64,000 nt of DNA from Alphaproteobacteria bacterium (GCA_045603405.1 JAZUMA010000015.1:54933-118932), one strand, 5' to 3'; shown: positions 9,328 through 64,000, numbered from the stretch's first letter. The notes: generated by a model from the sequence alone, not told the origin. A program made the numbers and translations.

Positions 9328-9404
9328 GGCGGACGTAGCTCAGTTGGTAGAGCCCCGGTTTGTGGTACCGGTTGTCGTGAGTTCGAGCCTCATCGTCCGC
9401 CCCA
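9328..9404 (+). tRNA. tRNA-His (GUG) with encoded G-1 and CCA
   Basis: g-GCGGACG TA GCTC AGTTGGTA GAGC C CCGGT TTGTGGT ACCGG TTGTC GTGAG TTCGAGC CTCAT CGTCCGC C CCA; 7-bp acceptor perfectly paired, anticodon loop TT-GTG-GT, extra 5' G opposite discriminator C (His hallmark). Confidence 0.88.
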
Positions 9405-9434: not shown

Positions 9435-9917
9435 TTAATGCCGCTGAAAGATTTTATGATTTACCGGTCTGTGTTCGTGTTTTTCAATATTTTTCCTATC
9501 TAACGGCTGAGCATGGCTTTGCTTTACATTATCATGCGAAGTTCTGCTTTTATCCGGCCTGTTCTTAGGAACATCATGCGAAGGTCTATCCTTTCTTATC
9601 TCATTCTTATGAACATCATGATGTTTATCATGCTCATGCTTTTTATCTATATGTTTTTTATCTTCATAATGCTTATCATGCACCGGTTTTTTATATTTAT
9701 AGTCAGATTTGTGATGCTTATAATGATGATGCTTCGGTGCCGGCGGACGATGATAATAATCCGTAGCCCATTCATAACTGCCAACCGGATAAAGATCATA
9801 AGAAGAATAGGAATAATAAGAAGAAGAATACAACTCATCATCAGGGACAACAATACATCCGCTCAATCCTGCTCCCACCACAAACAACACAAACAACGTT
9901 TTCACTTTTTTAATCAT
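9435..9917 (-). CDS. His/Lys-rich lipoprotein (signal peptide + LSGC lipobox, Tyr/Ser-rich segment, then long HxxH/DKKH-rich tail)
   Basis: 160 aa MIKKVKTLFVLFVVGAGLSGC...HHHYKHHKSDYKYKKPVHDKHYEDKKHIDKKHEHDKHHDVHKNE...; antisense 151-aa ORF considered spurious. Confidence 0.55.
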   Translation of the reverse strand: MIKKVKTLFVLFVVGAGLSGCIVVPDDELYSSSYYSYSSYDLYPVGSYEWATDYYHRPPAPKHHHYKHHKSDYKYKKPVHDKHYEDKKHIDKKHEHDKHHDVHKNEIRKDRPSHDVPKNRPDKSRTSHDNVKQSHAQPLDRKNIEKHEHRPVNHKIFQRH

Positions 9918-20289: not shown

Positions 20290-20595
20290 TATGAAAAATG
20301 GCGGAAATTTTGAGCTAATAGAGATGGGTACAAGGGAAACCAAAATTTTAATGTATACCAATAAAGCGAAAAATTTGAGATGGATAGAAGTGAATGTCCG
20401 ATACATAAATGGCAGAAAATTTTGAGCTAATAAAGATGGCTACGAGGGAAACCAAAATTTTAATGTATACCCATAAAGCGAAAAATTTGAGATGGATAGA
20501 AGTGAATGTCCGGTGGCAAAAATTTTAGTTTACATCGTAGTAAATGAATTTTTGCCAATCCGGCCTCCATTCACGATTAGACACTCAAATTTTAT
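20290..20595. repeat. Repeat family B copy 1: two tandem ~110-bp units plus terminal hairpin between convergent pnp and pfkA
   Basis: Units ggc.gaaaattttgagctaata.agatgg.tac.agggaaaccaaaattttaatgtatacc.ataaagcgaaaaatttgagatggatagaagtgaatgtcc x2, then imperfect inverted arm ccattcacgattagacactcaaattt. Confidence 0.7.
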
Positions 20596-21675
20596 CTAGA
20601 TTTCTCCGATATACATCCCCATCTCAACAGCCGCTTTCACATAAACGCTGTCAGGAGATAGCATCGTTGTCCCGCAAGCCACAACATCATCTAAAGGATA
20701 TGTTTTAATCTGATCCCCGTCAAGAGCCACCATCACATCAGTATGTCCTTCATACAATAGCTCAACAGCGCGTGCCCCGAATGCGGAAGCCAAAGCGCGA
20801 TCAAAAGCTGTCGGATCACCGGCACGTTGCACATGTCCGAGTTTAGTCACACGCGTTTGAAATTCTGAGTAGCGAGCATTTAAAGCCGCACTCAAATATT
20901 CACCGATACCGCCGTTAATTTTTTCACCGATAAGATTCTTTGCACTGGAAACCGCCTCGCCCGTTTCGGTATGTACCCCCTCAGATACAACAATAATCGC
21001 ATGATTTCTGCCTGATGCTTTAATACTCTTTAATTTATTAATAATACCATCAATCGTATAAGGAATTTCCGGCACCAAACAAACATCTGCAAAACCGGCA
21101 ACGGCAGAGTGCATTGCCAAGTGACCGGCATCACGTCCCATCACTTCCAAAATCAGTGCACGTTGGTGTGAACGAGCCGTTTTCCACAATGCATCTATTG
21201 CCTCCACACAAACCTGCCTTGCAGAATCAAAACCGACAGAATATTGTGTTTTTGGCGTATCATTATCAATCGTTTTCGGAATACCAACCATTTTAACGCC
21301 GGCATTATGACAATAATTGCTTACAATATTCATACTGCCGTCTCCGCCGACAACAACAACTGCATCAAGCCCAAGCTCAGCTACACCTTTACCAAAACGC
21401 TCAGAAACAGCCTTTTGCGATTCCATCTTTACGCCTTTGTTCAAAGAACCGAGATAAGAACCGGCAAGCCTTGGCCATGGGCTGTCCGAAAAATTCCGTT
21501 CCGTTAAAATTTCATATGAAAGAGGCGTCTCCGTCAATCCGTCTGTTCCGTTGTGAATACCATAAACTTCCCAGCCGTATTTTGTGGAAGAACGAACAAC
21601 CGAAGAAACAACTGCATTTAATCCGGCGCAATCCCCACCGCTTGTTAAAATACCGATTTTTTTAATATTAGTCAT
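20596..21675 (-). CDS. pfkA: 6-phosphofructokinase (PFK-A family; ATP- vs PPi-dependence not decidable by eye)
   Basis: 359 aa; GILTSGGDCAGLNA, VVVGGDGS, GIPKTIDNDT and MGRDAGHLA motifs of PFK-A. Confidence 0.85.
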   Translation of the reverse strand: MTNIKKIGILTSGGDCAGLNAVVSSVVRSSTKYGWEVYGIHNGTDGLTETPLSYEILTERNFSDSPWPRLAGSYLGSLNKGVKMESQKAVSERFGKGVAELGLDAVVVVGGDGSMNIVSNYCHNAGVKMVGIPKTIDNDTPKTQYSVGFDSARQVCVEAIDALWKTARSHQRALILEVMGRDAGHLAMHSAVAGFADVCLVPEIPYTIDGIINKLKSIKASGRNHAIIVVSEGVHTETGEAVSSAKNLIGEKINGGIGEYLSAALNARYSEFQTRVTKLGHVQRAGDPTAFDRALASAFGARAVELLYEGHTDVMVALDGDQIKTYPLDDVVACGTTMLSPDSVYVKAAVEMGMYIGEI

Positions 21676-32854: not shown

Positions 32855-32941
32855 TGGTGCGCTAGGCCGGAATCGAACCGGCACGGGATTGCTCCCAACA
32901 GATTTTAAGTCTGCAGCGTCTACCAGTTCCGCCACAAGCGC
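32855..32941 (-). tRNA. tRNA-Leu (UAA), class II with long variable arm, CCA encoded
   Basis: Reverse complement GCGCTTG TG GCGG AACTGGTAGA CGC T GCAGA CTTAAAA TCTGT TGGGAGCAATCCCGT GCCGG TTCGATT CCGGC CTAGCGC A CCA; anticodon loop CT-TAA-AA; one T-T mismatch in acceptor stem. Confidence 0.85.
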
Positions 32942-55969: not shown

Positions 55970-56165
55970 TTTCCCCCTTTACCTTGAATCAACTTATAAT
56001 ACCTAGAGGAAATCTTTTTTCTCTTGCTTTTTGCCAAATTTTTAATTATAAATTGTGCATGCCAGCTATTTATTAATACTGGCATTGAGTACCTGTTTGG
56101 GTGCAAGAGAGCTGTCGTAAGCTCAATATTGGTATCGGTGTTAGGGATATAACATCGTCATTTTA

Positions 56166-56338
56166 TCAGCTGTTCATAACAGCTGACAATAGATATATCC
56201 CCGATTCATAACAATATGGTCGGGGAGCTTTTAGCGTATGTCCAAGAACTGTATGAAGATACTGTTTAAAAGGCTAAGAGAGTCATTTATACCAATATGA
56301 TTTACGAACTCTCCGACCACCTTTCATAACAGGGTGGT
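56166..56338 (+). promoter_or_regulatory. three stem-loops each displaying TTCATAAC(A) in the loop, in the 380-bp leader/intergenic region upstream of the OMP gene
   Basis: H1 tcagctg-TTCATAA-cagctga (56166-56186); H2 tccccga-TTCATAACAatatgg-tcgggga (56198-56226) followed by gcttttag; H3 accacc-tTTCATAACAg-ggtggt (56316-56338) followed by ttttaacttttt, 12 nt before RBS. Confidence 0.4.
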
Positions 56339-56364
56339 TTTAACTTTTTATGGAGAGTTTTATA

Positions 56365-56991
56365 ATGAAAAAGACTTTTTTATTGGCAGGAGTTGCCGCT
56401 TCATTGTTTGCTTTCAATGCAAACGCTTTTGATTTTCAGCAATACATTTCTGGAAAACTAACATATAGCGATATGTCTAATGATGTTAAGATAAAAGACT
56501 TCGACGGAGGTTCAGATAAAACAAATGTTGATGATAAAGTATGGGGAAGCAATTTTGCCTATGGTATAAAAAATAATGCCTTAAGAACAGAATTAGAATT
56601 GAACATTAACGATAAAGCAAAAAAGAGTCAGTTTCATGATGGAACAAATGAAAAAAGAGAATTAGAAAATAATTCAATTATGCTAAATGCATATTATGAC
56701 ATAAATACAGGAACTAAATTTACTCCGTATATTGGAGTAGGCATTGGTATGGCTAGATTAAAAGCAACATATTCTGATAATACGGGTGCAAACATCAGCA
56801 AACACAAAAATAATGTTGTTTGGCAATTAGGTGCAGGTATATCTTATACATTAACTGATAATACAGCTCTTGATTTAGGATATCGATATACCGATTCAGG
56901 AGATGTAACATTACATGATCAAGAAGGAAATAAAGCTAAATTTGATTCTCAAGCACATGAAATTTTACTCGGTATCAGATATACATTTTAA
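56365..56991 (+). CDS. outer-membrane beta-barrel protein (OmpA-like/Opacity porin family small OMP)
   Basis: Track ORF trimmed to ATG 56365 (MKKTFLLAGVAASLFAFNANA signal peptide) with GGAGAG SD; alternating amphipathic strands; C-terminal ...GIRYTF with terminal Phe. Confidence 0.6.
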   Translation: MKKTFLLAGVAASLFAFNANAFDFQQYISGKLTYSDMSNDVKIKDFDGGSDKTNVDDKVWGSNFAYGIKNNALRTELELNINDKAKKSQFHDGTNEKRELENNSIMLNAYYDINTGTKFTPYIGVGIGMARLKATYSDNTGANISKHKNNVVWQLGAGISYTLTDNTALDLGYRYTDSGDVTLHDQEGNKAKFDSQAHEILLGIRYTF

Positions 56992-57052: not shown

Positions 57053-57150
57053 CAAAAAATATAGCACTTTCTCACACAAATAAATCTTGAACTAAAGAAA
57101 AAAGTTCTTGATTTGCGTAAAGAAATGTTTTATAAGCATTTTAGCTTGAT

Positions 57151-57191
57151 AGGGGTATAGCTCAGTTGGTAGAGCATCGGTCTCCAAAACC
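57151..57191 (+). pseudogene. tRNA-Trp (CCA) 5' fragment: acceptor 5' strand, D-arm, anticodon stem-loop; no T-arm/3' half (probable att-site remnant)
   Basis: AGGGGTA TA GCTC AGTTGGTA GAGC A TCGGT CTCCAAA ACC then caaaatagaattttcc, which is not tRNA-like; typical Trp tRNA matches to position ~41 only. Confidence 0.55.
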
Positions 57192-57364
57192 CAAAATAGA
57201 ATTTTCCAAGTATTTAAATTTCCACATTTTTTATTGATTTTTCAAACAGTTTAAGCAAAAAAAATTTTTTGCCTAGCGTACCTTGGCGTACCTAGGTATT
57301 CTCGATTTTCCGAACCGTTTCGGTATACTTTAGGTATCAGATAAACCGAAACGGAGATTTTGAA

Positions 57365-58492
57365 ATGGTAAAAAGTTTTCCTGGAGTGCGAACAGCAAAT
57401 CGCATAAGAAATGGTAGAAAAGATATTTACTTTTCTATTCGCTATACCAAAAACGGTAAGCAATGTGAAGAAGGCATCGGTTATAAATCAGACGGATTTA
57501 CAGCAGAAAAAACCTACGAAATTTTAAAAGAATTAAAACAAGATATAAAAGCAGGTAAAGTATCTTCTTTACGCGACAAAAACAACCAACGCGAACAAGA
57601 AAGAATTGCTAATGAGGCGGCAAATATGACGTTCTCAGAGCTTTTTGAAGAATATTATCAGCCGCATATTCAAAATAAAGACAAAAAATCAACATATGAC
57701 AGAGAAGTTAACCTATATAAAGTATGGCTTAGACCTTTTTTGGGAGATGTTAGGTTAAACCTCATTAGCCTCAAAAGCCTCACTAGGTTAATTCAAGCTA
57801 TGGATAAAAAACATTTATCTAATCGTACAAAACGCTATGCTATAGCACTAACGCGACAAGTTCTTAATTTTGCAATTAAATATGAGCTATTTGCAGGGGA
57901 AAATCCGGCAGCAAGATTTGACGAGCTGAAAAAGGAAGATAATCAACGTGTAAAGTTTTTAAGCGAAGAAGATTTAAACAATCTTTTAGCAGAAATAAAG
58001 AAACATAGCTATCAAGTTTATGTAATGGCACTTATTTCCGCCGATTGCGGACTACGCGCCGGAGAAATTTTCAGACTAACTTGGGCTGATGTAAGCCTAG
58101 AAGAAAAAATGCTGTTTTTGCGTGATACAAAAAATGGCAAGAATCGTTATGCCTATATGACAGACCGTGTTTTTGATGAACTTTCAAAATTAAAACAGCA
58201 TGAAGGCAATGAATTAGTCTTTCAAAGCAGAGAGGGAAAGAAAATAGAACATGTTTCACGCACTTTTGAACGTGCAGTCAAAGCATTGGGATTAAATAAA
58301 GGTGTTACAGACCGCAGGCAAAAAGTAGTTTTTCATTCTTTAAGGCACACATTTGCCAGTCGGTTAGTGCAAAAACGCGTTTCACTTTACGAAGTCAAAG
58401 AACTGTTAGGACATTCCGATATTGCAATGACTCAACGCTATTCACACTTGGCAAATGAAACGCTACGAGAGGCTGTTTCTAAGCTTAATTAG
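57365..58492 (+). CDS. int: tyrosine-type site-specific recombinase/phage integrase
   Basis: 375 aa; C-terminal catalytic region HSLRHTFASRLVQKRVSLYEVKELLGHSDIAMTQRYSHL (R..HxxR...Y). Confidence 0.85.
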   Translation: MVKSFPGVRTANRIRNGRKDIYFSIRYTKNGKQCEEGIGYKSDGFTAEKTYEILKELKQDIKAGKVSSLRDKNNQREQERIANEAANMTFSELFEEYYQPHIQNKDKKSTYDREVNLYKVWLRPFLGDVRLNLISLKSLTRLIQAMDKKHLSNRTKRYAIALTRQVLNFAIKYELFAGENPAARFDELKKEDNQRVKFLSEEDLNNLLAEIKKHSYQVYVMALISADCGLRAGEIFRLTWADVSLEEKMLFLRDTKNGKNRYAYMTDRVFDELSKLKQHEGNELVFQSREGKKIEHVSRTFERAVKALGLNKGVTDRRQKVVFHSLRHTFASRLVQKRVSLYEVKELLGHSDIAMTQRYSHLANETLREAVSKLN

Positions 58493-58653
58493 AGCAGTTT
58501 AACATATTATTTTGTTTATTATTTCGGGGCTTTTTTTTAAGTTCCGCACTCAAAATATTTTTGCACCCAAAAAAGGTGAATTGAGGTCTTTGGTCGTTAT
58601 AGCGCGAAAAAACAATGGTGTTTTTTCATAACTTTCGAAAAAGGAAACGGAAA

Positions 58654-58986
58654 ATGAAGAAAAACAATGATTTATCGCCAAGATTCTTTGAAATTTACAA
58701 AAGTAAACTTCTCGAACAAGCACCTTTAATTAGCCGAGTTAAGCTTTGCGAAATACTCCCATTTCTGAGCAGAAACACATTACGAAATATTGATTATGAA
58801 AACCCAGAAAAAGGAATAGGCGAAGTTTACTACGTAAACGGCAAAGCTTACTATGATGTAAACGATGTAATCCTATACATAAAAAAGAAATTTTGCAACC
58901 CCGAAAATGAAAAGGAGAATACAAAAAATGAAATTATTAAAAGTCGACCACAAAATTTTAGTTATAAAAGCGGAGGTATGAAATGA
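58654..58986 (+). CDS. AlpA/excisionase-like small HTH protein (putative Xis/regulator of the element)
   Basis: Track ORF 58615-58986 trimmed to ATG 58654 (MKKNNDLSPRF...) with AGGAAA SD; LCEILPFLSRNTLRNIDYENPEKGIGEVYYVNGKAYYDVNDVILYIKK resembles AlpA-family HTH layout. Confidence 0.4.
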   Translation: MKKNNDLSPRFFEIYKSKLLEQAPLISRVKLCEILPFLSRNTLRNIDYENPEKGIGEVYYVNGKAYYDVNDVILYIKKKFCNPENEKENTKNEIIKSRPQNFSYKSGGMK

Positions 58987-61328
58987 AACTAAAAAACATT
59001 TTAATTGAACAAATGGAGCGAGAGGCGCAAGCCTCTCCACTCCCTCCGAGAGAAGATGTTAGCGCATCTGCTCTCAATAACCAAAATGTTTGCAATATCA
59101 ACGAAGCGACCAACTTTTTGGATATTGCTACATTTTACGCACAACGCAATATTAAAACCTTTCCGGTAAAAAAGCAAGGCAAATCACCGCTTTGCCCGCA
59201 TGGTTTTAATGACGCAACCGCTGATAAAGTCGTATTGCAGGAATGGAATAAGCAATTTCCAGATTGCAATATAGGCATTCCGACCGGAGCAATCAATAAT
59301 ATCTTTGTTGTTGATGTAGATGGTGAAAGCGGCGCAAAATCTTTAGCTGAGTTTGAAAATAAATATGGTAAACTCAAAGCCCCGACCGTTAGCACAGGAA
59401 AAGGTAAGCATTTGTATTTCAAAATGCCGGAATGGGTAGAAATCAAATGCAGTACGAGTAAAATAGCTCCGCATATTGATATACGCGGTAATGGAGGCTA
59501 TGTTGTAGCACCACCATCTATTCACGAAAACGGTAATAAATATACTTGGGTTAATTTTGACTTTAGTCAAGATTTTCCAACTGCGCCAGAATGGTTGATT
59601 GATTTAATTAACAATCCCGAAAAAACAGATATTGATATGTTGCTTGATGAAATAGCCAACGCTCCTGAGGGAACACGGAACGATAGATTGTTAAGTAATA
59701 CTATCAAAATTTGTAATAGTGCAGATAGACAATTTCGCGATATTTCCGAAATCAAAGAAGATGTTGTAAATGCCGCGCTTGAATCAGGATTAACAAAAGC
59801 AGAGACAGTAAAAACAGTTAGCAATGCTATCAAGTTTTCAGAGGCTCACAGCGATAATCAAGCAGACACAGAGCCGGATATGGATATCCTTAAAGCTAAG
59901 GACCTATTGCCGGCTCCACAGCTTGATACAAGCATCTTTAAAAGCTTAGAGCCGTGGGTAGTGCAAACGGCACAAAATACTAATGCGCCGGTTGACTATG
60001 TCGCATTTTCATTGCTAGCCGGCGCAGCAGGTGTTATTGGTTTGTCGCGCTCTGTTTCACCTTGGGCAGAATGGATAGAACCATGCTGTTTATGGATTGG
60101 TGCTGTCGGAGAGCCAAGCTCCGGCAAAACACCGGCAACTACTCCTATTCGGCGTATTCTGAATCAAATTGAGGAAGACCATAAAGAGCCTTATTTTGCA
60201 AAACTAGCAGAATGGAAACGTACTAGAGAAGTTGCTAAGCAACGCAAAAAAGAATGGGAAGAAAAGGTCAAAGAAAATCCCGATACTGCAAGCAATTTTC
60301 CAAATACCGCTATTATTCCGGCAAAACCGCAAACATATCGCTTTGTTTACGGTGATACTACGCAAGAGGCAATTACCAAGGATATGGAACGCAACATAAA
60401 AGGCGCTATTCTTTTCCGTGACGAATTGTCAGCGTGGATTTGTGGTATGAATCGCTATAATAGCGGCAGTTCCGAGCGCGGTTTTTGGCTTGAGGCTTTT
60501 AACGGCCACAAGTTTGTATGCGATCGCGTTAAATATGACGACGACCGCTTAGAAATTAAAAATCTATTGGTATCGGTGTTCGGTACTATACAGCCTCAAA
60601 GGCTCGTAGACACGGTTTTTGATGACCGCGGCGACGGCTTCCTTGCCCGTTTTCTTTGGGTGTATCCAGCGGTTATACCGCCTGCTATCCCGCAAAATAT
60701 TGCTTTACCGGACACGGCTCTGAAAGCATTGCAAAAACTGGACACTTTATTAGATCCATATGCAGATTTTGCAGAAGAACAGAAAAAATGCTTGCAATTA
60801 AGTATAAAAGCAAAAGATGTTTTTAGCACTTGGTATATTGAACATTTAACCAGAACCCAGCAGGAAGAAAGCAATATCAAATATTTTCTTGGCAAAGGAC
60901 AAGGTTATGTCCTTAGGCTTGCGTTACTTTTAGAGCTTTTGTGGTGGAGTAATTCGGAATTTACTGAGCCGACAGAAGTCAGCGAAGACGCGGTCAAGGC
61001 AGCTATAAATCTTTACGATACCTATTTATTACCTATGTGTGAACGTGTTTATTATATGTATTATAGTCCGGTATATAATATTGAAGCACGGGCATTGGCT
61101 CGATGGATTATCGAAAATAAATCTGAAAGCTTTATTTTACGTGATGTTTATAACAATGGCACAGTAAAATATCTGCGCCGTAAGGAGCCGACAGAAACTG
61201 CCGCTAAAAAATTGGTGGAGCTGAATTGGCTACGTTATGAATGCACGCGCGCCGGAACAACCAAAGGCAAACGCCGGACAACCTACTATGTAAATCCCGA
61301 AGTCTACACTTTGGCGGAAAATTATTAG
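58983..61328 (+). CDS. primase-helicase: N-terminal bifunctional Prim-Pol domain + C-terminal P-loop NTPase (D5/DUF3987-like)
   Basis: 781 aa; Prim-Pol region FPVKKQGKSPLCPHGFNDAT...IGIPTG..NNIFVVDVDGESG...IDIRGNGGYVVAPPSIHENGNKYTW; P-loop GAVGEPSSGKT; GGAGG SD. Confidence 0.7.
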   Translation: MKLKNILIEQMEREAQASPLPPREDVSASALNNQNVCNINEATNFLDIATFYAQRNIKTFPVKKQGKSPLCPHGFNDATADKVVLQEWNKQFPDCNIGIPTGAINNIFVVDVDGESGAKSLAEFENKYGKLKAPTVSTGKGKHLYFKMPEWVEIKCSTSKIAPHIDIRGNGGYVVAPPSIHENGNKYTWVNFDFSQDFPTAPEWLIDLINNPEKTDIDMLLDEIANAPEGTRNDRLLSNTIKICNSADRQFRDISEIKEDVVNAALESGLTKAETVKTVSNAIKFSEAHSDNQADTEPDMDILKAKDLLPAPQLDTSIFKSLEPWVVQTAQNTNAPVDYVAFSLLAGAAGVIGLSRSVSPWAEWIEPCCLWIGAVGEPSSGKTPATTPIRRILNQIEEDHKEPYFAKLAEWKRTREVAKQRKKEWEEKVKENPDTASNFPNTAIIPAKPQTYRFVYGDTTQEAITKDMERNIKGAILFRDELSAWICGMNRYNSGSSERGFWLEAFNGHKFVCDRVKYDDDRLEIKNLLVSVFGTIQPQRLVDTVFDDRGDGFLARFLWVYPAVIPPAIPQNIALPDTALKALQKLDTLLDPYADFAEEQKKCLQLSIKAKDVFSTWYIEHLTRTQQEESNIKYFLGKGQGYVLRLALLLELLWWSNSEFTEPTEVSEDAVKAAINLYDTYLLPMCERVYYMYYSPVYNIEARALARWIIENKSESFILRDVYNNGTVKYLRRKEPTETAAKKLVELNWLRYECTRAGTTKGKRRTTYYVNPEVYTLAENY

Positions 61329-61343
61329 AAATAAGAAAAAGAC

Positions 61344-61374
61344 AGGGCGAGTTTTACGATTCGCCCTTTTTATT
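61344..61374 (+). terminator. bidirectional rho-independent terminator between primase gene and minus-strand cargo operon
   Basis: agggcga-gttttacgat-tcgccct + ttttatt; upstream aagaaaaaga gives T-run on minus strand. Confidence 0.55.
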
Positions 61375-61376
61375 AG

Positions 61377-61667
61377 CTAACTCAATTGACCTAAAAATTT
61401 ATTGCCTTTATTCCATCTAGCTTCGTATTTATCCCGAACCTGATAAACCCAAATATCTGCACCATATTTATCATCAACCCAACAAATAACTGCTGTTGCA
61501 CCATATTCACTATCGGAAAAATACCAAATTTCATCTTTGCAATCAGCCTCATAAATATCTCTTGTTTTGTAGAACCATAAATCAGCTTCGTATTTATCGC
61601 TAACTAAAAACACTTTTACCACCTTCGGAAAAAAATATATATCATTTGTAGCATATATTTGCGCCAT
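61377..61667 (-). CDS. hypothetical repeat protein (five ~12-aa DKY.AD.W.Y repeats), last gene of cargo operon
   Basis: 96 aa: DKYEADLWFY / RDIYEADCKDEIWYF / DSEYGATAVICWV / DDKYGADIWVYQV / RDKYEARWNKG. Confidence 0.4.
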   Translation of the reverse strand: MAQIYATNDIYFFPKVVKVFLVSDKYEADLWFYKTRDIYEADCKDEIWYFSDSEYGATAVICWVDDKYGADIWVYQVRDKYEARWNKGNKFLGQLS

Positions 61668-61749
61668 TGTTTTTACCTTTCATGAAATAAAAAAACAGGC
61701 GCATCATCTTTTAAGATGCGCCATAAATAGAAGTCGTATAGAAACAAAA

Positions 61750-62382
61750 TTATTTCTGATTTACTTTTTGATTGTTAATTTCATCAAAGATTTTAATAAT
61801 TCGAGTTTTTAATTCATCATCTGATAGCGTAAAATTAGATTTCTGCTTTTTTATAACACCCGCAATAAATCTATCTACTTCTTCATACCATTTATCATAT
61901 ATTGTCTCACCATAATCGCCAACATAGACCAGTTCCTTATACTTTTCAGATAATATATTAAAATGTTCCTTGACAATAGAATAAAGCTGTTTTTTGTATA
62001 ATTTTTCTGCGTATTTTCTATATACAAAGCTAAACAAACCAATAACAAGAAAAGAGGTAATAACAACGCAAAAAGAAATTGAATCAGATTCAACACCTAA
62101 TGATTCAAAGAAAACAATTAATCCACCCAATAAAGGAAAAAAAATCAAAGTAACAAAAAGTATAAACCATGAGGAATAAGTAAAACTAACTTTTTTTGTA
62201 TTTCCAGATATTTTATTGCCAATTGCGTTCAACGCATGCGTAGAAGTAGATGCCGAAGCCTTTATAATTTTGACGATTATTAAAAATATAATAACACAAA
62301 TAAGGTAAATTATTGGTCCTATCGGCGGAACAATCAAACAACTTATTATAAAACCAAGTATTATCAAAAGCCATGCTATCAT
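61750..62382 (-). CDS. hypothetical membrane protein (4 TM) with ~90-aa cytoplasmic C-terminal domain
   Basis: 210-aa ORF; middle gene of cargo operon. Confidence 0.45.
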   Translation of the reverse strand: MIAWLLIILGFIISCLIVPPIGPIIYLICVIIFLIIVKIIKASASTSTHALNAIGNKISGNTKKVSFTYSSWFILFVTLIFFPLLGGLIVFFESLGVESDSISFCVVITSFLVIGLFSFVYRKYAEKLYKKQLYSIVKEHFNILSEKYKELVYVGDYGETIYDKWYEEVDRFIAGVIKKQKSNFTLSDDELKTRIIKIFDEINNQKVNQK

Positions 62383-62403
62383 GTCTATTTCTCCTTTTTT
62401 CTA

Positions 62404-63249
62404 TTATTTGCACAAACCAGCCGCCCCATTACTGGTACAGCATTTAAGACTCTTATCATAAAGGTACGTTTGGTATTCTATTTCGGATATTTTGAAATTT
62501 GATTTTTTAAATGCCCTAATTCTCTTATTCTTCCAGTTATATATTCCAATATCTTTATGTAAATATTGCCAGTCTTTGTAGCATTCTCCATCGGCATAAT
62601 CATCGTCAGTATAAATGAAATATTCTTTTTCCTCACATCCAATAAGAGGATTAAGAAATAGATTTGCTAAAGGAGAAAATGTACAGCCACTTCTTACGAC
62701 AATTCCCGTATTATCATAACCGATTACCTTTAAACAGAAACTCCAGTTACTTGTACGATTCTCCGGATTAGAAGTTATAGTTTCATCCAATATCATTAAA
62801 TTGCCTTCAGAGTTGTTAAGTTCAGTATTACGTAGTTTAGCCTTTTCCATAGCCCGTTTGCAATCACTCACCTTTTCCTCTTTTTCTTTTTGTACTTTTA
62901 AAATGCTTGCCTTGTATTGTGCATATTTAGCAATATCCTCCGGGCGTTCTTCTGAACAAATTTCACAAGCTTTCAGTAATTTATCAAAAACATTATCGGC
63001 AGTATCAATCGTCAAAGTTTGATATGTTTTATTAGTATCAGTCCAATCTTTACCATATTGAATGTTTGATATGTATTGAATATTCTTATCACTATCATAT
63101 CTAAAATAATCAGAAAGAAAATGACAACTATTTGGTATTTCTGCCCTAACGTTTTTATACTGTTCTTTAAGAGCTATAAGCCTTTCATTAGTACACCCAA
63201 TTAACATCAACAAAACTAATAAAAAAAACTTTTTCATTATACACTCCAC
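62404..63249 (-). CDS. hypothetical Cys-rich lipoprotein, first gene of cargo operon
   Basis: 281 aa; MKKFFLLVLLMLIGC lipobox; 14 Cys. Confidence 0.45.
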   Translation of the reverse strand: MECIMKKFFLLVLLMLIGCTNERLIALKEQYKNVRAEIPNSCHFLSDYFRYDSDKNIQYISNIQYGKDWTDTNKTYQTLTIDTADNVFDKLLKACEICSEERPEDIAKYAQYKASILKVQKEKEEKVSDCKRAMEKAKLRNTELNNSEGNLMILDETITSNPENRTSNWSFCLKVIGYDNTGIVVRSGCTFSPLANLFLNPLIGCEEKEYFIYTDDDYADGECYKDWQYLHKDIGIYNWKNKRIRAFKKSNFKISEIEYQTYLYDKSLKCCTSNGAAGLCK

Positions 63250-63392
63250 TGCGAAAAAGGAATAATTTAAAACACAGTGTAATGTGTATTAGATTCGGTG
63301 TCAATCAAAATTACAATAAAAAACACAGCCAACCGTTATGGTATTTAACACATTAAAATGTGAAAATAACCGGTGATCTGAAAGGCTGAAAA

Positions 63393-63740
63393 ATGATTGA
63401 ATCAACGCAAATTTTAAAAATATTAGGCAAAAGAATTGCTACACTCCGCAAGCAGCAAGGAATGAATCAAGAGGAATTTGCGGATGTTTCCGGCAAAATG
63501 ATTAACACAATTTCCAATATAGAACGCGGTTTAAGCGATCCTAAAGTAACTACTTTGTTGTCTTTAGCACAAGCATTAAATGTTCCTGTCGATTCTTTAT
63601 TTAACGGCAACGAACAACAACCGATTGAAGAACTACCAGAGAACGTGCAAGCCATTGTAAAACTGATTAAAAACCAAGATAGCCACACATTAAGAGTTAT
63701 TCAAAAACAAATTGAGGCACTTCTAGAGCTAAAGAGGTAA
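63393..63740 (+). CDS. XRE-family (Cro/CI-type) HTH transcriptional regulator
   Basis: 115 aa; LRKQQGMNQEEFADVSGKMINTISNIERGLSDPKVTTLLSLAQALNVPVDSLF. Confidence 0.7.
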   Translation: MIESTQILKILGKRIATLRKQQGMNQEEFADVSGKMINTISNIERGLSDPKVTTLLSLAQALNVPVDSLFNGNEQQPIEELPENVQAIVKLIKNQDSHTLRVIQKQIEALLELKR

Positions 63741-63816
63741 CGTTTAAAAATAAATAGATATTGAGATTTTGATTTTATTAATATACAATTCAGGCATATT
63801 TTATAAGGTGCTCGGA

Positions 63817-64000
63817 ATGAATATTAATGGGATAAATATAAAAAGAACTGACAAAAACACTGTAATTTGCAAAGTTACTTCTTTTACAAATGAATTACAG
63901 CAGATAATTATAGAAAAAATTGCATCTATTGCACGTGGAAAAAATGGCACATATTTTTCGCATAATGAGATATTACGTGAAATGCTGGATATATGTCAAA
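63817..64000 (+). CDS. hypothetical protein, N-terminal part (runs off window)
   Basis: ATG at 63817, open to end of window (61 codons). Confidence 0.3.
   Translation, partial: MNINGINIKRTDKNTVICKVTSFTNELQQIIIEKIASIARGKNGTYFSHNEILREMLDICQ

Follow-up and report, generated by a model that had tools for sequence, protein, structure and literature searches.

Most elements that target tRNA genes bring a replacement 3′ half for the gene they enter, and integration of the satellite P4 replaces the tRNA 3′ end and retains the host promoter. Bacterial elements, with very few exceptions, keep the tRNA on its original promoter (PMC8371274). An arrangement in which the attachment site attB is the tRNA gene's 5′ half, and the tRNA is expressed from a promoter of the element, has been described for archaeal pTN3-like integrases and is "seldomly encountered in bacteria" (PMC8371274). 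The P4-like class of SatelliteFinder requires psu, delta, sid and epsilon, and the combination of int, AlpA and primase alone is its "Type C", held ambiguous by its authors (PMC10085698). The genes int, alpA and pri are the unidirectional three-gene core of the phage-inducible chromosomal islands of Gram-negative bacteria (GN-PICIs) (PMC10111431), and in the case of the tycheposons tandem or remnant copies gather at the tRNA gene (bioRxiv 10.1101/2020.12.28.424599). Here we analyze positions 57151-64000 of a 64,000-nucleotide stretch of DNA, referred to as the window, from an Alphaproteobacteria bacterium (GCA_045603405.1 JAZUMA010000015.1:54933-118932). This region very probably represents the int-proximal ~6.85 kb of a site-specific integrative element of 8-11 kb that rebuilds tRNA-Trp at its far end. 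The family to which the element belongs is widespread in uncultured gut and rumen Alphaproteobacteria.

The tRNA-Trp fragment is a repeated sequence

A preliminary description of the region, made from the sequence alone, reported a 41-nt 5′ fragment of tRNA-Trp(CCA) followed by a set of short direct and inverted repeats and an integrase gene. The fragment is an exact copy of nucleotides 1-41 of the tRNA; it spans the acceptor stem, the D arm and the anticodon stem-loop and stops 3 nt into the returning stem. The short repeats between the fragment and int were also located. The features of this end of the element are as follows.

57108-57136, plus strand: promoter-like element, TTGATT (57108-57113), 17-nt spacer, TATAAG (57131-57136), preceded by an A-tract; recognized by conservation
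57151-57191, plus strand: attL core, tRNA-Trp(CCA) nt 1-41, left copy of a 41-nt direct repeat; exact match
57192-57364, plus strand: int-proximal att arm, with a presumed role in integrase/Xis binding; its parts follow
57206-57217, plus strand: CCAAGTATTTAA
57255-57272: A/T palindrome GCAAAAAAAATTTTTTGC
57276 and 57286: two copies of GCGTACC
57293 and 57331: two copies of TAGGTAT
57315-57327 and 57342-57354: 13-nt inverted repeat overlapping the int Shine-Dalgarno sequence

ARAGORN called only a tRNA-His (9329-9404) and a tRNA-Leu (32855-32941, minus strand) in the 64-kb window. It called no tRNA at the fragment, where a complete gene would have spoken against the preliminary description, and the Rfam tRNA model scored 26.7 bits at 57151-57209, below its gathering score of 29. 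A search of the window for the 3′ half of tRNA-Trp found none, the sole match to GGTTCRANTCC being located in the tRNA-Leu gene, and neither a second upstream fragment nor a tandem element was found in the window. The inner 32 nt of the fragment occur once in the window and were not found in 100 shuffles.

The locus was compared to 16 related loci obtained by an integrase scan, one genome per species, all of them in metagenome-assembled genomes (MAGs) of gut or rumen Alphaproteobacteria. Family comparisons such as clustering of open reading frames (ORFs) and alignment of the arms include these 16 relatives and the window (17 loci), and statements about the far end, attR, rest on the 10 loci with contigs long enough to reach it. 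The integrases of the 16 relatives are 77-99% identical to that of the window, and a copy of the 41-nt sequence with at most 3 mismatches is present about 214 nt 5′ of int in every one of them. An intact tRNA-Trp was called by ARAGORN on the same strand, 8,084-10,791 nt downstream, in all 10 loci reaching that far, and its 5′ part is a second copy of the 41-nt sequence. Nucleotides 1-41 are identical in attL and attR and the two diverge at nucleotide 42, which is a C beside int and a G in the tRNA. The presence of the same 41 nt before int and at the start of an intact tRNA-Trp at the far end indicates that the 41 nt are the att repeat bounding the element. A tRNA segment as direct repeat at both ends together with one intact tRNA was therefore seen in 10 relatives, and the window shows attL. 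The preliminary statement that the tRNA is not reconstituted holds within the 64 kb. Judging from the relatives, which rebuild tRNA-Trp at the far end in 10 of 10 cases, it is an effect of the window edge, and the intact gene is predicted at the integrase-distal end, beyond position 64000.

Empty sites and recent mobility

The preliminary description also proposed a comparison with related genomes to find the empty site. Metagenomes were scanned for the host-type promoter (see below) joined to a tRNA-Trp running past nucleotide 41, and 94 stretches were found in which this promoter is directly joined to an intact tRNA-Trp. Eighty of the 94 were examined; each has one intact tRNA-Trp and lacks the fragment, int, the primase gene and the XRE gene. 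Two of the empty sites can be aligned to the flanks of occupied ones. Over 6 kb the left flank of L008 is 94% identical to the empty L054, and this similarity goes as far as the final nucleotide of the 41-nt fragment. The empty L080 aligns over 4.7 kb to the left flank of L012; the alignment likewise stops at nucleotide 41 and is taken up again at the attR tRNA of L012, 9.6 kb on. Since both breakpoints are found exactly after nucleotide 41, the insertion is precise and takes place in the anticodon-loop region.

The window element and that of L001 share 97.2% nucleotide identity over 4.6 kb (57150-61736), with flanks that cannot be aligned, and the Obg and RsfS proteins of the two hosts are only 71% and 68% identical. 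Conversely, L004 is from a closer host (Obg 86%) and has a more distant integrase (87%). The similarity of the elements is thus discordant with that of their hosts, which shows horizontal transfer between species, and the 97% identity of two elements in hosts with Obg proteins 71% identical indicates that the movement was recent. The host genes upstream of the element vary between loci. More than 100 integrase clusters at an identity of at least 62% were found in gut and rumen metagenomes. The GC content does not discriminate the element (0.355 versus 0.371). Some element-length Logan contigs that start inside the repeat were considered as possible circular forms and were rejected, as they are k-mer assembly breaks and no circles.

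Polarity of the integration and a candidate promoter

Because the repeated sequence is the tRNA's 5′ part and the complete gene stands at the int-distal end, the working gene has a 5′ half, and upstream DNA, that belong to the element. The locus is unusual, as the preliminary description sensed, but the reason is that the gene is rebuilt from the other side. All 10 attR tRNAs are preceded, within element DNA, by an A-tract, CTTGATTT, a 17-nt spacer and TATAAG, TATAAA or TATAGG, with this −10-like hexamer ending 14-16 nt 5′ of the tRNA. The sequence CTTGATTT is invariant 5′ of the 17 attL fragments and the 10 attR tRNAs. The conservation of TTGATT-17-TATAAG makes it a candidate for the promoter of the attR tRNA. 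If such a promoter hand-over is real, a mobile element controls the expression of the tRNA-Trp of the cell.

Two versions of the upstream sequence can be distinguished at attL. The host-type promoter, CTTGATTT...TGTGTATCAA, is found at the empty sites and at most attL copies (13 sites), and the element-type promoter, with TATAAG, is found at the attL of the window, L002, L009 and L010. In the window this region (57098-57150), in which the distance from CTTGATTT to the tRNA is 45 nt, is 90.6% identical to the element-borne promoter region at the attR of L001. The element-type promoter at the attL of the window may be the footprint of an earlier element that decayed to the piece that the cell needs.

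The following sequence of events can be proposed. The tyrosine integrase would recombine the attP site of the element with the anticodon stem-loop of the chromosomal tRNA-Trp. The int-distal arm would contribute the promoter TTGATT-17 nt-TATAAG and tRNA nucleotides 1-41, so that attR would hold an intact tRNA-Trp made of the promoter and 5′ half of the element joined to the 3′ half of the host, and the promoter and 5′ half of the host would be left as a 41-nt stub before int (attL). In the genome of the window the attR tRNA-Trp, starting with AGGGGTATAGC, is expected about 3-4 kb past position 64000, with the remainder of hamA, a hamB of about 2.3-2.5 kb and a distal arm that has GGTTTAGGGATAAAAAAGGG some 200 nt ahead of TTGATT-17-TATAAG predicted in between. 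Excision would presumably be carried out by the integrase with a small winged-helix protein as directionality factor, and the excised circle would presumably be replicated by a Prim-Pol/DUF3987 protein. A backbone of int, winged-helix, primase-helicase and XRE genes frames two cargo slots whose contents vary.

Sister elements at tRNA-His

The backbone recurs, along with homologous distal arms, in elements that have integrases 59-67% identical to that of the window and are found at tRNA-His genes in antisense orientation to int (for example at 9780-21025 of L127 and 9632-17331 of L129). L127, L128, L132 and L133 follow the conventional scheme, with a 3′ fragment of the tRNA beside int and an intact tRNA-His at the opposite end, where the element supplies the 3′ half and a terminator; the integrases of L127, L132 and L133 are 63-67% identical to that of the window. 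In L129 (60%) the 5′ half of tRNA-His and 24 nt upstream of it, with a putative promoter, are carried on the int-proximal arm, and the intact tRNA abuts int. The more distant L131 and L017 also have antisense 3′ fragments beside int. A short extra 3′ stub of tRNA-His and a duplicated flank of ~70 nt are present 5′ of attL in L132 (about 9480-9800), resembling the scar of an earlier integration.

In a neighbour-joining tree, built without bootstrap, the integrases of the tRNA-Trp elements form one clade nested within the grade of those at tRNA-His. The presumed crossover cores are TCGGT-CTCCAAA-ACC in the sense strand of tRNA-Trp and CCGGT-ACCACAA-ACC in the antisense strand of tRNA-His, and CAAAAT is found on the int side of both. 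The likeness of the cores and the nesting of the Trp clade suggest that the polarity was reversed by retargeting. We tentatively propose that a single lineage arrived at three solutions for rebuilding a tRNA, and that the polarity at tRNA-Trp was reversed when an integrase acting on the anticodon loop retargeted a look-alike stem-loop on the opposite strand, which would have forced the capture of a promoter; taken together with its consequences, this proposal could be correct, and we advance it as a conjecture. If it is, a probably single-copy and essential tRNA hangs on the promoter of the element, the tRNA promoter of the host points into int, and element-type promoters stay permanently after decay, as at the attL of the window, L002, L009 and L010. 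A large data set in which over 100 clusters of integrases stand beside sister elements of opposite polarity and precise empty sites is well suited to testing how an integrase changes its target and how elements acquire pieces of genes.

Attachment arms and backbone genes

In the alignment of the 17 loci, the int-proximal arm shows conservation of CCAAGTATTT and of the GCGTAC doublet. The distal arm has the conserved non-coding motifs AACATTGTAAATAGGTAT and GGTTTAGGGATAAAAAAGGG. These motifs are plausible candidates for arm-type binding sites. Conservation of the inverted repeat ahead of int is limited to the subgroup of the window, and no family-wide consensus fold was found for this region (−0.57 kcal/mol). 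Two overlapping hairpins can be drawn at 57310-57354, neither of them family-wide. One is terminator-like, CCGAA-CCGT-TTCGG followed by a T-rich tail, and the other is the 13-nt inverted repeat, which covers part of the int Shine-Dalgarno sequence. Because the host tRNA promoter points into int, these hairpins could limit read-through.

The genes of the element within the window are listed below.

57365-58492, plus strand: tyrosine integrase, 375 aa, starting 173 nt past the fragment
58654-58986, plus strand: small winged-helix DNA-binding protein, 110 aa, ATG at 58654; candidate excisionase/AlpA-like protein
58983-61328, plus strand: Prim-Pol and DUF3987 P-loop primase-helicase (Pfam), 781 aa; candidate replication protein
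61377-61667, minus strand: slot 1, gene 1, DUF6150 (PF19647, "Septknot"), 96 aa; Pfam 3.4e-15
61750-62382, minus strand: slot 1, gene 2, predicted membrane protein, 210 aa; an ORF with homologues in L003 and L009 only
62404-63237, minus strand: slot 1, gene 3, predicted lipoprotein, ~277 aa, with a MKKFFLLVLLMLIGC lipobox; partial homologues in L002, L003 and L005
63250-63392, strand not assigned: divergent regulatory region between the lipoprotein and XRE genes; read from the sequence
63393-63740, plus strand: XRE-family helix-turn-helix (HTH) regulator, 115 aa, backbone gene; HTH_3 1.8e-15
63817-64000, plus strand: slot 2, first 61 codons of a HamA-like (Hachiman) gene, cut by the end of the window

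The order int, small ORF, primase-helicase, minus-strand slot, XRE, plus-strand slot, distal arm, promoter and tRNA is that of the family (17 loci). The integrase assignment of the preliminary description, which placed the gene within 175 bp of the fragment and recognized an R..HxxR..Y box, was borne out by profile searches (full-length Pfam Phage_integrase domain, 8.9e-34, with a SAM-like N-domain; phrog_1 integrase, 1.2e-67) and by the catalytic residues R231, H324-x-x-R327 and the Y of ...QRYSHL. The 781-aa protein, described there as a Prim-Pol and P-loop primase-helicase and recommended for profile searches, matched both Prim-Pol (6.4e-42) and DUF3987 (2.8e-61) as well as the PHROG DNA primase (5.4e-35) and DNA helicase (4.1e-34) families. 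It has the Walker A motif GEPSSGKT at residue 376, and its gene is present in the 16 loci, of 16, that extend that far.

The reading frame of the small protein is open from 58615 (123 aa). The protein had been taken for an AlpA/Xis-like HTH protein, a proposal that stands at the level of the fold and not at that of the sequence. Profile searches gave no family match, and comparisons to the PDB by Foldseek and by sequence profile were both non-significant. The AlphaFold model has a core at residues 10-85, with a predicted local distance difference test score (pLDDT) of 82-94, arranged as beta-helix-turn-helix-beta-beta-helix, and its best fold matches in BFVD are phage excisionases, with probabilities up to 1.00. 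The family of this ORF has 33 detectable members, all within these elements, and the model was built on their alignment. From the modeled fold only, the protein is read as an excisionase/AlpA-type winged helix.

The XRE regulator, also named in the preliminary description, has copies 62-90% identical in 10 other loci, where it is found ahead of differing defence systems. CACA...TGTG palindromes at 63272-63287 and 63349-63362 are candidate XRE operators, as judged by their sequence.

Outside the element, an OmpA/opacity-type beta-barrel outer-membrane protein gene (OMP_b-brl 1.5e-19) is located at 56350-56991, between rsfS and the tRNA-Trp site. It has no homologue in the other 16 loci, and in L004 rsfS directly abuts the tRNA promoter. 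The sequence 3′ of rsfS (56142-56203) can form a strong hairpin, probably a terminator or a repeat element; a match of the same positions to Rfam mir-875 was discarded as spurious (28.7 bits against a gathering score of 84).

Cargo slots and defence genes

Slot 1 corresponds to the three-gene "cargo operon" of the preliminary description. The three minus-strand ORFs and the XRE gene exist, and they are better described as one of two variable slots and a backbone regulator. Eight of the 17 loci encode DUF6150, immediately behind the primase gene; the protein matched neither the defence library nor PHROG, and a literature search on "Septknot" returned nothing. The gene includes internal repeats of the type DKYEAD, which are seen in the DNA as direct repeats D1 and D2. 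The membrane protein and the lipoprotein had no match in Pfam, PHROG or PADLOC. Elsewhere in the family the minus-strand slot includes DUF6150, membrane proteins or lipoproteins, PD-(D/E)XK, SHOCT/ankyrin, a DnaB_C-like ATPase or RNase T. Either a DnaB_C-like ATPase (5.5e-42), accompanied by a small partner protein, or an exonuclease of the RNase T type (1.9e-28) was observed in the minus-strand slot of L007, L011, L014 and L016 or at 14083-14625 of L002; these genes adjoin a PD-(D/E)XK protein gene and may be accessory replication/recombination genes or uncharacterised defence genes.

The 61 codons of slot 2 that fall within the window encode a sequence 82% identical (50/61, E 2e-35) to a protein of L005 to which precomputed annotation assigns PF08878 HamA (DUF1837); a HamB-like DEAD/ResIII helicase (PADLOC HamB 6e-31) comes next in that locus. 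HamA and HamB are found together in L005, L124 and L125. On the strength of this match the window element most likely carries Hachiman in slot 2. The same position holds Lamassu LmuB (1e-38) and the ABC-3C MC5 component (5.8e-38) in L011 and L012, bSEFIR (3.5e-93) in L014, AbiLi (3.2e-85) with a GIY-YIG protein in L004, PDC-M19A/B (1e-102 and 8e-100, the A protein containing DUF488) in L001 and L003, and a GHKL ATPase with a PD-(D/E)XK protein in L002, L006, L009 and L119. In the relatives at tRNA-His the defence slot contains an MmeI-like type II restriction-modification enzyme. By these gene assignments, anti-phage systems have their hotspot in the plus-strand slot that follows XRE. In uncultured gut and rumen Alphaproteobacteria, hosts for which no described satellite or defence island was found, the family provides a small chassis of int, Xis-like and primase genes with a slot into which defence genes can be plugged.

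Route of transfer and alternative explanations

Several observations weigh against an integrative element that moves and rebuilds the tRNA at its far end. The attR of the window element lies outside the 64-kb window, so that attR was observed in relatives only; exact look-ups of the XRE, primase-helicase and integrase proteins in a contig index returned no record by which the sequence could be prolonged. In one of the relatives, L002, the attR tRNA-Trp carries three damaging substitutions. A generic sigma-70 and terminator scan calls neither version of the promoter, as both −10 hexamers lack a final T. Neither an excised circle nor an attP junction was seen in the Logan contigs examined. Genes for a capsid, a terminase, packaging redirection or a relaxase were detected neither in the window nor in more than 20 relatives, and neither IMG/VR, scanned with the integrase and the junction pattern, nor the GenBank phages included a close relative.

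In the L002 tRNA (20579-20654), which ARAGORN still calls, the D loop has a G to C change, the anticodon stem is disrupted by a C at position 42, and the acceptor stem contains a T.C mismatch. This copy could be a gene in decay or a site in the middle of a tandem array, or else the MAG consensus may be in error.

Of the ways in which the element could pass from cell to cell, hitch-hiking on a helper phage would seem the most likely. The integrative element would then be, more specifically, a helper-dependent satellite of the PICI or P4 type that is excised upon induction by a helper, replicated by its primase-helicase and packaged in helper capsids, with defence cargo that benefits the host and the helper. 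This refinement is possible but on balance doubtful. It would account for an element that has no transfer machinery of its own and shows clear recent transfer between species, and it agrees with the unidirectional int/AlpA-like winged helix/primase core of GN-PICIs (PMC10111431), with the size of 8-11 kb, as the median of P4-like satellites is 10 kb (PMC10085698), and with the defence hotspot, which P4-like satellites also have (PMC13586616). On the P4-like side, an integrase (Phage_integrase 8.9e-34) and a primase-helicase, of the Prim-Pol and DUF3987 type, are present. General Pfam and PHROG searches of the window ORFs found no homologue of Psu, Delta, Sid or Ash/epsilon, and no Pfam or PHROG match to a psu-delta-sid operon was found in the ORFs of the relatives either. 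The PICI packaging and capsid-interference module (terS, rpp, cpm/ppi, capsid gene) was found neither in the window nor in the relatives. When the whole element was compared by blastn to 50,697 phage records, nothing matched but a phage tRNA-Trp and no cos- or pac-like similarity was seen, and scans of IMG/VR with the protein and with the junction pattern did not detect the element. The designation as a P4/PICI-like integrative element in the preliminary description is accordingly sound as regards the targeting of a tRNA and the int/winged-helix/primase core and goes too far as regards the satellite class, since this core alone corresponds to the ambiguous "Type C" (PMC10085698).

An integrative mobilizable element or a tycheposon-like shuttle, transferred by conjugative mobilisation, in vesicles or by generalised transduction without a specific helper, is an unlikely description of the locus. 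Tycheposons are 10-20 kb in length, integrate in tRNA genes, encode a tyrosine recombinase, a primase/helicase and cargo, and in many cases have no packaging genes (bioRxiv 10.1101/2020.12.28.424599), which is in line with the lack of phage-related genes in the element; on the other hand, no relaxase, oriT-associated or coupling-protein domain was detected in the family members scanned.

That the island has decayed, or that tRNA-Trp was disrupted and another copy serves the cell, as the preliminary description suggested, would explain a 64-kb window with neither an intact tRNA-Trp nor its 3′ half, and is very improbable. The backbone ORFs are all intact and 97% identical at the nucleotide level to a copy in a different species, the tRNA at attR is intact in 10 of 10 relatives with enough sequence, and the window ends ~3 kb early; the relatives L005 and L124, whose cargo is the same, reach over 10-11 kb beyond the fragment. 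A fixed, vertically inherited locus of the clade, with the 41-nt repeat as an old duplication and not an att site, agrees with the presence of integrase and fragment in 16 species representatives of related Alphaproteobacteria and is hardly credible given the precise empty sites (L080/L012 and L054/L008), the different upstream host genes, the discordance of element and host phylogenies and the rapid turnover of the cargo.

Comparison with known systems

We conclude that the element works like an integrative replicative island of the PICI or tycheposon type, and that its assignment to the P4-like satellites or the PICIs is not supported. It shares with GN-PICIs such as EcCICFT073 a unidirectional core of int, a candidate AlpA-type protein and a primase, a size of ~10 kb, integration in a tRNA gene, which is frequent among them, and the capacity to carry defence genes (PMC10111431). 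It differs from them in the absence of capsid, terS and packaging-redirection genes, in the reversed polarity at the tRNA, in an AlpA match by fold only, in a primase of the Prim-Pol and DUF3987 type, and in its hosts, uncultured Alphaproteobacteria, with no helper phage known for the element. With P4-like satellites it has in common an integrase, a candidate AlpA-like regulator, a primase-helicase, here of the Prim-Pol and DUF3987 type, and the length of ~10 kb (PMC10085698), as well as a variable locus that swaps anti-phage systems (PMC13586616); unlike them, it lacks Psu, Delta, Sid and Ash/epsilon in Pfam and PHROG searches.

The tycheposons of Prochlorococcus and other marine bacteria are likewise small and integrate at tRNA genes; each combines a tyrosine recombinase with a primase/helicase, an excisionase, a regulator and cargo of modular make-up (bioRxiv 10.1101/2020.12.28.424599). 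The likeness is one of organisation; the hosts are others, the cargo is defence here and nutrient acquisition in tycheposons, and the 5′-half polarity is not reported in the tycheposon source (bioRxiv 10.1101/2020.12.28.424599). In the use of the tRNA 5′ half as attB and in a rebuilt tRNA expressed from what is probably an element promoter, the locus resembles the pTN3-like integrases of Thermococcales and the few bacterial cases credited to Williams 2002 (PMC8371274). The pTN3-like enzymes are archaeal "suicidal" integrases with attP inside int, whereas here int is intact and the piece of tRNA is on the int-distal arm. The site itself resembles the "symmetric sublocation" class of the anticodon loop (Williams 2002, as summarized in PMC8371274), as the block of identity ends 3 nt past the 7-nt anticodon loop and the stem arms CGGT and ACCG flank the presumed overlap region. 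Starting at the loop, the block of identity reaches the tRNA 5′ end in the element, and not the 3′ end as in that class. The family thus accounts for a seemingly broken essential tRNA and offers a clear example of tRNA integration with reversed polarity, which is described in reviews as rare in bacteria.

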